NCBI GenBank assembly: GCA_046497275.1
Contig: JAWOFX010000115.1
Location: 1-30,470 of the forward strand
DNA from: Promethearchaeia archaeon
Lineage (GTDB): Archaea; Asgardarchaeota; Lokiarchaeia; Sigyniarchaeales; SOKP01
Length of the DNA: 30,470 bases
Direction of reading: 5' to 3'
Shown: piece by piece, positions 1,145 through 22,978 of the stretch
Layout of the letters: each line of letters opens with the position of its first letter
Position numbering within the stretch: position 1 is the stretch's first letter
Made by a program: the position numbers and the translations under genes
The notes under the pieces: model-generated
The model's database searches: none
Seen by the model: only the letters and a program-made list of their open reading frames with translations
What the model was told of the DNA's origin: nothing

Positions 1145-1348
1145 TAATTTAATTCTCACAGAATTTGCCTTTCTGCTAAGTCTAGAAAAACAATTTTGGA
1201 ACTATTAAGAAAATTATATTTGGAAATTAAATGCACCCGAAATTTTAACTGAAGCGTTTTTTAATTGAGTCCAAAAGGATTAGATTTAAAGTTATCCAAA
1301 AAATTTTTTAGGTATGTTTTATTTTAAATATCACAGTGGAGAAGTTGC

Positions 1349-1406: not shown

Positions 1407-4370
1407 ATGAGTTACAGCTATAGTCGTACGAAATTAATTGAAAAAATCAAATTTGGATTACTCAGCCCTGATGAGATTCGTAAAATGTCTGCCGCGAGAA
1501 TTATCACGGCAGATACATATGATGAAGATGGGTTGCCTATTCCGTCGGGACTAATGGATCAGCGACTAGGGACGATTGAACCCGGTCAAAGATGCCAAAC
1601 GTGTGGGAATCTCGTGAGTAACTGCATGGGCCATTTCGGGCATAGATAAAATTGGCTAAATTTTATCGCCCAAATCGAATTGGCACGTCCGGTTATCCAC
1701 GTAGGCTATGCGAAAAAGGTCCTAAAAGTTTTGAGAAGTGTTTGTCCTGAGTGTAGTCGCCTAATGCTAAGTGACGAGGCCCGAGAAAAGCACCGTGAGG
1801 AGCAAGTAACACATCGTAGGATTTATCACGAAGGTGATGAGGATATTACGAAGATTGTATTTAAGAGCGCCCGAAAAAATAAGGTATGCCCGTTCTGTGG
1901 TGCAAAAAAGAAAAAAATAATTCTTGAAAAACCTACTACGTTTTATGAAGAAGAAGAGGCAAAAGGTTCTCGGAGATTGACCCCAATCGAGATTCGGGAA
2001 CGATTGAAAAAAATGACCGATGCGGATCTTCGGATTTTAGGAATTTCTCCTAAAAATGCGAGATTAGAATGGGTGATTTTCATGGTTTTACCAATTCCCC
2101 CGGTGTGTGCTCGACCATCAATTACATTAGACAGCGGTATTCGTTCTGAAGATGATCTAACCCACAAATTAGTAGATGTGATTAGAATTAATCAAAGATT
2201 ACGGGAAAATATTGATGCAGGGGCACCTCACTTAATAGTTGAGGATTTATGGGAGCTTCTTCAATATCATATTACTACTTATTTTGATAATCAAGTGTCT
2301 GGAATCCCTCCAGCTCGTCATCGCTCCGGAAGAGCCTTACGTACCCTTACTCAACGATTAAAAGGCAAGGAAGGTCGTTTCAGAAGTAATTTAAGTGGAA
2401 AAAGAGTTGATTTCTCTGCTCGAAGTGTAATCTCACCCAACCCACATATAAGTATCAATGAAGTCGGAGTACCAGAAGAGATCGCGAAAATACTTACTAT
2501 TCCAACGAATGTGAATGATTGGAATATTGAACAAATGAAACAATTAGTCTTAAATGGACCTAATAAGCATCCTGGAGCAAATTATATTATACGAAACGAT
2601 CGACGCAGAATAGATCTTCGCTATGTGAAAAATCGAAAAATTATCGCAGATATGCTTGCACCGGGCTTCACGGTTGAGAGGCATTTAAATGATGGCGATC
2701 TTGTACTCTTTAATCGACAACCCTCACTTCACCGAATGTCAATTATGGCACATGAGGTAAAAATCATGGAGGGGAGAACCTTCCGACTAAATCTTACTGT
2801 CTGTCCTCCATATAATGCTGATTTTGATGGAGATGAGATGAATCTTCATGTCCCTCAAAGCGAAGAGGCGAGAACTGAGGCAGAACTCCTTCTTAAAGTC
2901 CAAGAGCATATCTTATCACCCAGGTTTGGAGGTCCTATTTTAGGAGGCATTCAAGATTTTATTTCAAGCGTATTTCAATTCACCAGTAAGGATTCTCTTT
3001 ATAATGAAAAAAATACGTTAAAGCTTCTTTATATGGGAAATATTTTTGATAACCATCCAGATTTTAAATTGGAGGATTTAGAACCCGTAGTGACAGATCC
3101 CGAGCCAATGTATTCAGGGAAGCAAATCTTTAGTACTCTTCTTCCAGATGATTTGAATATTCGAGTACGCTCAAAATTTTGTAAGAAGTGCTTTACAAAA
3201 CCTGGAGAGGAATGCAAGGAGGAGGATTGTGAATTTGATGCGTATGTCTCGATTACAAATGGAGAGCTGGTAACGGGAACGATTGACGAGAATTCCTTTG
3301 GTGCGATGCAATCAAATAGTATTTTACAGAGGGTTATCAAAGATCATGGAAATGCTCGAGGAAGAGAATTCCTCGATAGTGCCACCCAGATGTTATTATA
3401 TGTCATTCGTCAAAATGGAATGACGATGGGACTTGATGAGGTTTTTGTAAAAGGAGAAGCATTTGAAGAGATACAAAAAGTGTTACATGATTCTACTGAA
3501 GAATCGAAACGCCTTATTAAAGCTTTCCGAGAAAATGATACTGACGTGTTGCAAAGAGCACCTGGGAGGTCATTGAAAGAGACTCTTGAATTACGGATTC
3601 GGCAGGTACTTGCTGAAGCACGTAAAAAAGCTGAAGAAATTGCTGCGAACTATATTGGAGACGAAGCTCATTCCGTTATCATGACAAAATCAGGAGCTCG
3701 AGGAAATATACTTAATCTTGGACAAATGTCTGCTGTTGTGGGACAACAAGCAATAAGAGGTGAAAGAATCAATAGAGGATATACCTCAAGAACATTACCT
3801 CATTTTAAAGTAGATGATCTTACTCCTAAAGCACGAGGATTCGTAGAACAATCCTATAGGAATGGATTAGACCCCTCTGGATTCTTTTTCCATGCTATGG
3901 GTGGCCGAGAAGGTCTTGTAGATACCGCAGTACGTACTAGTACATCAGGATATATGCAAAGGCGTTTAGTGAATGCCTTACAGGATATGGTCATTGAAAA
4001 CGATGGAACCGTGAGAAATGCTGACAAAAATGTCATTCAATTTGATTTTGGAGATGATAATATTAATCCTCAACATACCGATCATGGAGATGCGGTGAAT
4101 TTAGATGTTCTTCTACTTAAAGCTCAAACCCTGGATACCAATGAAATTAAAGAAGAATTAAAACATGTAAAACCTGAGAAACAAGAAAAATCGAAACCAA
4201 AAGAGAAAAAAGAAGAAGTGAAAGAAAAAGGGAAGGAAAAGGGGAAAAAAGTTCCAACTGAAAATCAAATGCAAGATGAATTTGAAAAAGAAACCGGAAA
4301 AAACGCTATTTGGCAAGGAAAAATAACTAAACAATATAAAGAATGGAGAGAAGAAAACTATGGAGTATAA
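1407..4370 (+). CDS. rpoA1: DNA-directed RNA polymerase subunit A' (Rpo1N), two exons 1407-1643 + 1674-4370, 977 aa after splicing
   Basis: N-terminal [16 protein letters not shown], clamp Zn site CQTC..CMGHFGH joined to [30 protein letters not shown], catalytic [10 protein letters not shown], bridge helix [15 protein letters not shown]. The ORF track splits it into 1407..1649 and 1680..4370. Confidence 0.97.
1644..1673 (+). other. 30-nt BHB-type (tRNA-splicing-endonuclease) intron in rpoA1
   Basis: Insert AGATAAAATTGGCTAAATTTTATCGCCCAA, with in-frame TAA at 1647-1649. Central helix GGGC(1638-41)/GCCC(1668-71), 5' bulge AT^A, inner 9-bp stem, 3' bulge AA^A. Removal restores His-Ile of GHFGHIELARP. 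Confidence 0.9.
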
Positions 4371-19055: not shown

Positions 19056-20389
19056 ATGGCCGATAAAAAACCACATTTGAATCTAGTTATAATAGGGCAT
19101 ATTGACCATGGTATGCTATAACCGTTTCGGTTAATTAGCCCATAAAGTCAACCATGATGGGTGCCCTGTTAATTAAAACAGGTGCGGTAACAGACAGAGA
19201 AGCACGAGAATTAGAAAAAATTGCGAAAGAATTTGATAGAGATTCATGGTCATATGCATACGTATTTGATAAATTGAAAGAAGAACGACAGAGAGGAATT
19301 ACAATAGATCTTGCCTTTAGAAAATTCGAAACACCCAACAAATATTTCACAATCATTGATGCCCCTGGTCATCGAGACTTTGTCAAAAATATGATCACTG
19401 GTGCAAGTCAAGCTGATGCAGCAATCTTAGTAGTTTCCGGAAAGAAAGGAGAAATGGAAGTTGGTATCGCAGCTAATGGTCAAACCCGTGAGCACGCCTA
19501 TTTAGCACAGACCTTAGGCGTTAAACAATTGGTTGTGGCCATTAATAAGGCAGATGTCTGGGATTATGATGAAGATAGATATAAAGAATGTGTACAATCA
19601 GTATCAGCTCTTTTAACAAATATTGGTTTTCCTGTAAAAAAGATTCCGTTTGTACCTGTAAGTGGATTACTTGGGGAGAACCTTACTGAAAAAACCGATA
19701 AAATGCCTTGGTACGATGGTCCTAGTTTAATAGACGCAATTGATGAATTTCAATTACCAGAAAAACCGACTGGTAAACCCTTACGAGTACCTATTCAAGA
19801 TGCATATAGAATTAAAGGTACTGGTGTGGTTCCAGTGGGTAGGGTTGAAACTGGTGTATTAAAAAAAGGTGACCAAATTCTTATTCAACCAACCGGCTTT
19901 AAAGGTGAAATTCGAAGTATAGAGATGCATCATGAAGAAATTCCCGAAGCAGAACCGGGAGATAATATAGGATTTAGTATCCGAGGTCTTACATTAGAAG
20001 ATGTACACAGAGGAGATGTTTTAGGACGACCTGATAATCCACCAACCGTTATTACACCTAAGGGGAGTTTTACTGGACAAGTCATTGTAATTTGGCATCC
20101 TACTGCAGTTGCACAAGGTTATACTCCAGTTGTTCATGCTCATACCGCTCAAGTTGCAGCGAAATTCGTTGAGCTTAAAAAGAAACTTGACCAGAAGACG
20201 GGCGCTGTAATCGAAGATAACCCGAAGTTTATCAAGAAAAACGAAGCTGCTATTGTCACGTTAAGTCCTATCAAGAAATTGTGCATAGAGAAATATGAAG
20301 AGATTCCAGAGATGGGTCGATTCGCGGTACGCGACATGGGTAGAACCGTAGCTGTTGGTATAGTAAAAGATCTTGAAACTGGAGAGTAA
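19056..20389 (+). CDS. tuf: Translation elongation factor EF-1 alpha, two exons 19056-19113 + 19146-20389, 433 aa after splicing
   Basis: MADKKPHLNLVIIGHIDHG|KSTMMG P-loop, ERQRGITID, DAPGHRDFVKNMITGASQAD, NKAD, GRFAVRDMGRTVAVG. The ORF track misses exon 1 and starts at 19154. Confidence 0.97.
19114..19145 (+). other. 32-nt BHB-type intron in EF-1alpha
   Basis: Insert TGCTATAACCGTTTCGGTTAATTAGCCCATAA, with TAA at 19119-21 and a frameshift. Central helix ATGG(19108-11)/CCAT(19140-43), bulges TA^T and AA^A, inner hairpin, outer exon-exon helix. Removal gives GGT AAG TCA ACC (GKST). Confidence 0.92.
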
Positions 20390-22351: not shown

Positions 22352-22408
22352 ATCTCTTTTCTCAAAATTATGTGACTTTTTCTAAAATAAAAAATTGCCA
22401 CTAGCTAT

Positions 22409-22978
22409 TCACGTACTTCGAAAAGCTCTTCCAATTAAATGAGCGATCCTAACGGGTTCAGGAAGCTTAGAATCTATTGAAACTTTTTTTAGTAAATTCT
22501 CCGCATCATTAATTGATATGCCTATTTTATGAAAATATATGGCGGATTTACCTGCGGCAGTTTCGATTTCAGTCTCATAAAGATGACCTGCATTAATGAT
22601 TTTTTCAAATTTCTTAGGAGAAAGGAGGGGAAACTTTTTATTAAGCGCCCTTTTTACAGAATCCAGATCTACCTCTCGCTCCGTCACAGCAATCATCGGT
22701 TTATTTGTTTTCTCATAGATTTCCTTCATATCAACCAAATTAAACCCTCCAAAAGTAATAGTATGTGTTAATATATATTGAACATGTTTTTGATTTTTTA
22801 TTATGAGTGAAATTAACTGCTCAGTTGCATCATTCCCATCAATTTTTATTAATGTTTTAACTACTTTTACTACTCGAACTCCTTGACATACAACTCCAAT
22901 TAGAAATGTTTTATCTGTCCCTTTTTTAAGACTAAAAGTAGCATCATCGCAGCCCATAATTATTGGATTTTCTTTCAT
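22409..22978 (-). CDS. DUF99/UPF0215 family protein (endonuclease V-like fold)
   Basis: IMGCDDA, KIDGNDAT, ITFGGFNLVD, KLPEPVRIAHLIG. Confidence 0.85.
   Translation of the reverse strand: MKENPIIMGCDDATFSLKKGTDKTFLIGVVCQGVRVVKVVKTLIKIDGNDATEQLISLIIKNQKHVQYILTHTITFGGFNLVDMKEIYEKTNKPMIAVTEREVDLDSVKRALNKKFPLLSPKKFEKIINAGHLYETEIETAAGKSAIYFHKIGISINDAENLLKKVSIDSKLPEPVRIAHLIGRAFRST

Follow-up and report, generated by a model that had tools for sequence, protein, structure and literature searches.

A probable BHB intron splits the P-loop of the only EF-1alpha gene of an Asgard archaeon

Introduction

How could an archaeon make EF-1alpha when the one gene found for the protein is broken, within the P-loop, by 32 nucleotides that shift the reading frame and bring in a stop codon? 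The question is raised by a contig (C83) from a 3.85-Mb metagenome bin (G000; 98.9% complete, 4.4% estimated contamination, about 31% G+C), whose 30,470 nucleotides are the stretch of DNA analysed here, referred to below as the window. The nearest EF-1alpha loci belong to metagenome-assembled genomes (MAGs) labelled Promethearchaeota or Promethearchaeia, that is, Asgard archaea of the Lokiarchaeia type.

The original prediction, made from the letters of the window alone, was that the insert is a BHB-type (bulge-helix-bulge) mRNA intron, a class usually excised from tRNAs. We consider it likely, with good confidence, that positions 19114-19145 are indeed an archaeal BHB intron in the pre-mRNA of a single EF-1alpha gene. 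This is an inference from comparative sequence analysis, and no RNA or protein evidence is available. The reading is supported by the geometry of the putative cuts, the absence of another gene copy, the presence of the enzymes, introns with covariation in related genomes, and signs of purifying selection.

Results

An insert interrupts the only EF-1alpha gene

The EF-1alpha gene lies on the forward strand, with its ATG at 19056 and the end of the 433-amino-acid spliced frame at 20389. Read without splicing, the frame runs through GHIDHG and closes, as a 21-codon ORF, at the TAA of 19119-19121, and a 411-amino-acid ORF (19154-20389) takes up EF-1alpha again from MMGALLIK; this part matches TIGR00483 (EF-1_alpha) with 585 bits. 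The 32-nt insert (19114-19145) that separates GHIDHG from KSTMMG shifts the frame, and the layout originally proposed, comprising the 32-nt gap, the frameshift and a stop after 21 codons, was borne out by the sequence and by an ORF check. Exon 1 (19056-19113, forward strand) would hold 19 codons (MADKKPHLNLVIIGHIDHG) and the A with which the Lys codon opens, and exon 2 (19146-20389, forward strand), which carries the TIGR00483 match, would continue as (A)AG TCA ACC to the stop codon.

Removal of 19114-19145 in silico yields an intact 433-amino-acid EF-1alpha, as had been claimed, with the P-loop GHIDHGKSTMMG, identical to that of intron-less orthologues; the translation of exon 1 after splicing likewise equals that of insert-free orthologues. 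The predicted spliced junction reads CATGGTA^AGTCAACC, with the codons GGT AAG TCA. Gly-Lys is kept only by deletions that start at 19112, 19113 or 19114, in agreement with the earlier count of three permissible junctions.

The insert is absent from the same-genus genome G002, whose EF-1alpha has 95% amino acid identity to that of the window, and the alignment has a gap exactly there (30 nt by blastn, 32 nt by MAFFT). All same-genus relatives examined are likewise without it. Gene callers annotate only the 411-amino-acid ORF, with the P-loop missing, and a search of a protein collection for the spliced form returned this ORF alone, as a singleton cluster. Neither Rfam nor ARAGORN gave any match in the window.

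Annotation confined to the shorter ORF, close relatives of the same genus without the insert, and the lack of RNA evidence of splicing are all compatible with an insertion that is never spliced, for instance of a small hairpin element, which would leave either a pseudogene or a gene from which only the P-loop-less 411-amino-acid ORF is made. Such an insertion is harder to reconcile with the remainder of the genome. No further copies of the intron sequence were found in it beyond chance, and the insert is therefore not a repeated element. A search for a second EF-1alpha in this 98.9%-complete genome found none, the next matches being GTPases of 28% identity, so that the check for another intact copy on which the intron reading depended came out in its favour. 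A GTPase without the P-loop lysine cannot bind GTP, and this counts against a cell that makes only the 411-amino-acid product.

The predicted fold places the cuts where the P-loop is restored

The transcript around the insert is predicted to adopt a BHB fold (all coordinates on the forward strand). Its central 4-bp helix pairs the exon strand ATGG (19108-19111) with the intron strand CCAT (19140-19143), and is flanked by a 5′ three-nucleotide bulge, TAT (19112-19114), and a 3′ three-nucleotide bulge, AAA (19144-19146). Both bulges sit 3′ of their own strand of the central helix, on opposite strands, as in the handedness of a real BHB. The inner intron hairpin h′ (19115-19139) consists of 4 bp followed by 6 bp closed by a UUU loop (GCTA/TAGC plus TAACCG-TTT-CGGTTA). 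The outer, exon-exon helix h, which appears both in the local minimum-energy fold and in the RNAalifold consensus, is formed by a 5′ strand at 19102-19107 with one bulged C (19106 or 19107) and the 3′ strand GTCAA at 19147-19151. It can be drawn in two ways, either with the pair C19107-G19147 set apart from 4 further bp by a bulged C19106, or with 5 bp (19102-19106/19147-19151) and C19107 bulged.

Of the fold as originally proposed, the central helix, both bulges and the helices of the inner stem stand, but what interrupts the inner stem is a bulge of 2 nt (A19134 and T19135) rather than one extra base. The accompanying description of an essentially strict BHB is slightly generous, since the outer helix is imperfect. 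For the local 54 nt, the BHB fold is the one of lowest energy, at -15.7 kcal/mol. As modelled, the motif is a slightly relaxed hBHBh′ and not a perfectly strict one, because helix h has a 1-nt bulge adjoining the central helix. In a 66-nt context a rival fold is more stable, at -20 kcal/mol (by 4 kcal/mol).

EndA cleaves after the second nucleotide of each bulge. Applied to this fold, the rule puts the cuts between 19113 and 19114 and between 19145 and 19146, exactly as had been predicted, and this junction, giving GGT AAG TCA, belongs to the three at which Gly-Lys survives. Of 200,000 shuffled versions of the insert, only 0.34% combined a 4-bp central helix with an inner stem of 3 bp or more at a cut that keeps Gly-Lys.

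Related inserts occupy six sites in EF-1alpha genes of one family

Using the intact EF-1alpha orthologue of G002 as query, we searched all 161 genomes of the class, all of them, like every genome compared here, metagenome-assembled, and aligned the interrupted matches. EF-1alpha is present in 147 class genomes, with one strong match each, and inserts of 29-33 nt occur in 14 of these 147, at six sites and exclusively in the window's own family. A 15th case (G152) is an EF-1alpha fragment at a contig end with an internal TAG and TAA. The window's site, A (GGN A/AR, the stroke marking the insert), is shared by nine genomes of three genera. The other sites are B (GAT/CAT), 7 nt upstream of site A, in G017 (L016:1457-1485); C (CAT/ATT) in G126 (L044); D (GTT/ATT), about 20 nt further upstream, in G080 (L041); E (GHxD/F), in the switch-II region, in G077 (L046); and F (GR/T), near the C-terminus, in G086 (L049). 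Four of the six fall within about 40 nt of one another, in the P-loop region.

The intron of G017 has the same ends as that of the window (TGCTA...TAGCC-AT-AA) and pairs with ATTG, via CAAT, and not with ATGG, which suggests, as far as sequence likeness can, either relocation or repeated insertion of related introns. In the EF-1alpha tree, site-A introns are found in at least four clades, each of which also has intron-less members, such as G007 inside the clade of G150, G128 and G154, and G019, which groups with G122 and G125. For intron-less members to be nested in intron-bearing clades, introns must have been lost exactly, gained more than once at the one site, or both. A check of 80 EF-1alpha loci of other archaeal phyla brought up interrupted genes only in G077 (site E) and G045, both of which belong to this class. 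In G045 (L050/L063), from another family of the class, EF-1alpha has an in-frame TGA without any insert, which may be a sequencing error, recoding or the mark of a pseudogene.

The comparison also bears on whether the interruption is an artefact of assembly or binning, or a minority allele in a population whose real gene is uninterrupted. The window does come from a metagenome bin with some estimated contamination, and the locus is judged here without read-level data. Against this, an independent assembly record, GCA_964385245.1, has the identical sequence on a contig of 9.5 kb, insert included, although it may derive from the same reads; related inserts were recovered in 13 other MAGs, from different projects; and a BHB motif with frame-restoring cuts would not arise from an artefact. 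We regard an artefact or minority allele as scarcely credible.

Cut geometry and covariation point to an endonuclease substrate

For the six EF-1alpha sites and an intron candidate in rpoA1 described below, we listed all cuts that restore the conserved peptide and scored the central helix at each, with the mirror-image geometry, which has an equal chance expectation, as control. In the true BHB geometry, exactly one peptide-restoring cut has all four central-helix pairs (4/4) at each of the seven sites (7/7), whereas in the mirror geometry a cut reaching four pairs was found at none of them (0/7). The 3′ tetramer of the intron tracks the exon tetramer from site to site (ATGG/CCAT, ATTG/CAAT, GGAC/GTTC, CTTG/CAAG, GCAG/TTGT, GGGT/ACCT and GGGC/GCCC, exon before intron). 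The final two intron bases are AA at all seven sites, with AT or AG in some site-A variants.

Without any constraint, RNAalifold returned the BHB consensus for eight site-A introns. In this consensus structure 92% of cells are paired, versus 30-50% with the partners slid. The same eight introns have compensatory changes, affecting both sides, at five pairs of the alignment, which are those noted for h′, and their covariation score was reached by none of 500 shuffles.

These patterns also speak to a reading in which the mRNA is never cut and the ribosome instead bypasses the insert, in the manner of T4 gene 60 or of the mitochondrial ‘byp’ elements, or else shifts frame. Bypass elements, including those of Magnusiomyces mitochondria, resemble the EF-1alpha insert in being short, stop-containing hairpins within essential coding sequence that leave no trace in the protein, and a short hairpin directly after a Gly codon gives a superficial likeness to gene 60. 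Bypass, however, needs matched take-off and landing codons. Here the take-off codon would be GGT (GGA in relatives), there is no GGN before the resumed AAG (the preceding bases being ...CCCATA), and no stop codon directly follows the take-off codon. Nor does bypass need pairing between an exon tetramer and the 3′ end of the insert, whereas this pairing, at a fixed offset, is the feature kept at all seven sites and is the signature of an endonuclease. A simple frameshift could not get past the TAG and TAA that lie in frame in the 33-nt variants. Bypass or frameshifting is in our judgement extremely unlikely.

The gene behind the putative intron is also constrained. The dN/dS of EF-1alpha is 0.019 between the window's gene and that of the intron-less G002, and 0.04-0.07 among intron-bearing genes; the latter range includes a closely related trio with a common intron (G069, G075 and G115), for which dS is 0.24-0.38. 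Judged by these ratios, the intron-bearing EF-1alpha genes are under strong purifying selection, and values of 0.02-0.07 argue that they are not pseudogenes. An unspliced, dead insertion is thereby opposed by an ORF that is otherwise intact and constrained, also between genomes with a common intron, and further by the inserts of 14 genomes, all of which follow the BHB rule precisely at the cut that restores the protein, with no counterpart in the mirror control. Taken with the sole gene copy, these observations make a dead insertion, in our view, very unlikely.

A second candidate lies in rpoA1, and recent gains seem rare

The window contains a second putative BHB mini-intron, 17 kb from the first, in the gene for RNA polymerase subunit A′ (rpoA1, 1407-4370). 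It occupies 1644-1673 on the forward strand, between GHFGH and IELARP, and is 30 nt long and in frame, with a TAA inside. Its central helix is GGGC/GCCC and its inner stem 8 bp, with a relaxed 3′ side, and the rpoA1 orthologue of G002 has an exact 30-nt gap at the intron position.

We then compared G000 with the same-genus G002 without reference to any motif, taking 1.2 Mb, of which 0.84 Mb aligned. Besides tRNA introns, the only ORF-breaking inserts of 20-70 nt specific to G000 in the aligned 0.84 Mb were those in EF-1alpha and rpoA1, suggesting that recent gains are rare; introns common to the two genomes are invisible to this comparison. A 27-nt insert specific to G000, at 22377-22403, was rejected as an intron, being intergenic and just past the stop of a reverse-strand ORF (22409-22978).

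The same kind of difference was seen in the other direction. G002 has a specific 30-nt in-frame hairpin insert on the reverse strand of its contig C4 (L172, about 899-928, in G002:C4:40001-60000), which has no stop codon and a BHB-like geometry (CCAG/CTGG, with the bulges TTA and AAA). Both a spliced intron and a tolerated insertion of 10 amino acids would fit.

A search of G000 for BHB motifs that on removal would join two ORFs into one, in real versus mirror geometry, gave 149 versus 132 hits with the strict definition (at least 50 codons on each side) and 106 versus 92 with a long inner stem, that is, no clear excess over the mirror geometry, because ordinary same-strand gene junctions yield about 100 background hits. 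The EF-1alpha intron, whose helices are interrupted, is captured by neither definition. The motif scans say nothing either way about the number of introns in G000.

The genome encodes candidate splicing enzymes and many interrupted tRNA genes

Two EndA-family genes (PF01974; contigs C46, near 30392, and C168, near 8310), of about 200 amino acids each, and two RtcB genes (PF01139; C100 and C145) are present in the genome. One EndA aligns end to end and ungapped with the alpha subunit, the catalytic one, of the heterotetramer of Aeropyrum pernix and keeps the catalytic Tyr/His/Lys and the KPR loop region; the second paralogue is more distant from that subunit. By this alignment, one of the paralogues is a predicted Crenarchaeota-like catalytic subunit. 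According to PMC5829648, Asgard archaea have an (alpha-beta)2 EndA with an L1 loop that gives it broad specificity and lets it accept relaxed BHB forms, and a KPR-type loop confers a broad substrate range in Crenarchaeota.

ARAGORN, run on the whole 98.9%-complete genome, found only 25 tRNA genes, of which 13 have introns. Multiple or non-canonical introns probably conceal many more, and the low count together with the introns is consistent with published accounts of tRNA genes in Asgard archaea as heavily interrupted. On contig C32 (about 1170-1200, reverse strand), a 30-nt insert specific to G000 lies in an apparent tRNA T-arm (GGGGGTTCAA...ATCCCCCC) and is probably a non-canonical tRNA intron.

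Discussion

We propose that the EF-1alpha transcript, nascent or free, folds locally so that ATGG (19108-19111) pairs with CCAT (19140-19143), that EndA would then cut after the second base of each bulge, and that RtcB would join the exons at GGT-AAG-TCA to give the mRNA for a normal 433-amino-acid EF-1alpha, with the excised intron probably freed in circular form. That the transcript is cut and ligated in vivo, which enzyme subunits act and what becomes of the intron are all inferred from the known tRNA and cbf5 pathway. The intron would begin 57 nt after the start codon, and the BHB motif 47 nt after it. With the motif so near the start codon, a translating ribosome could melt the BHB, given coupled transcription and translation. 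Splicing must then be fast, or else unspliced copies give no more than a 21-amino-acid peptide.

A wider idea is that endonuclease-spliced mini-introns may be actively colonising protein genes of Lokiarchaeia, with the EF-1alpha P-loop as a hot spot, and that splicing might tie EF-1alpha output to the capacity of EndA and RtcB. This is speculative and we think it improbable; if true, an EF-1alpha splicing checkpoint would be an archaeal analogue of regulated mRNA splicing of the XBP1/HAC1 type in the closest relatives of eukaryotes.

If the BHB intron is real, an Asgard archaeon would rely on tRNA-type splicing for a core gene that is both essential and highly expressed. Confirmation in RNA would mean that the prokaryotes most closely related to eukaryotes have split protein genes and cannot do without mRNA splicing, and would open a tractable system in which to study how introns are gained, exactly lost and relocated. 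It would also mean that standard gene callers mis-annotate such genes, here as a 411-amino-acid protein with no P-loop, and one would have to ask how the cell coordinates splicing with coupled translation.

Among known systems, the HAC1, XBP1 and bZIP60 mRNAs of eukaryotes are similar in that a protein endonuclease recognises paired stem-loops and cuts a short intron (26 nt in XBP1) out of an mRNA that looks mature, followed by joining by a tRNA ligase (RtcB or Trl1 in eukaryotes) and a change of reading frame. The cutting enzyme and its target differ, being the IRE1 kinase/RNase and two 7-nt loops in eukaryotes versus, by inference, EndA and a BHB here, and splicing in eukaryotes serves as a regulated stress switch, whereas no regulation has been shown for EF-1alpha.

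Non-canonical tRNA introns offer a closer parallel. Those of Thermoproteales were reportedly described by Sugahara in 2008. Such introns are documented for Thermoproteales and Asgard archaea (PMC11291895; bioRxiv 10.64898/2026.10.13.758758); the papers on Asgard introns concern tRNA genes only and discuss no protein-gene introns. They share with the putative EF-1alpha intron the same motif, the size range (about 15-35 nt), the dependence on a broad-specificity EndA, and similar evidence of repeated gains and of relaxed motif variants (HBh′), and the genome studied here also has many interrupted tRNA genes. The host differs, in that EF-1alpha is an mRNA, in which splicing must be nucleotide-exact to keep the reading frame and competes with ribosomes.

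The nearest precedent is the BHB intron in the crenarchaeal cbf5 pre-mRNA, which is said to go back to work by Watanabe in 2002 and Yoshinari in 2006. The intron in the pre-mRNA of cbf5 (pseudouridine synthase) is documented in Crenarchaeota (Yokobori 2009, PMC2738675). In the literature that could be searched, protein-gene BHB introns are documented only for crenarchaeal cbf5 (PMC2738675, and the reference lists of PMC12397907 and PMC5829648), and a review-level paper of 2025 still cites only cbf5 studies for such introns. The two cases agree in a short intron within protein-coding sequence, a BHB at the exon-intron boundaries, presumed cutting by a hetero-oligomeric EndA and joining by a tRNA ligase, and patchy gain and loss among relatives. 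They differ in that splicing has been shown experimentally for cbf5 and is only predicted for EF-1alpha, and in that the present intron lies in the EF-1alpha P-loop in an Asgard phylum (of the Lokiarchaeia type), has a second candidate 17 kb away in rpoA1, and is one of at least six intron positions in a single gene across one family. Supported by comparison and still without RNA proof, the EF-1alpha intron very probably represents the cbf5-type class in a new gene, in a new phylum and at many positions.
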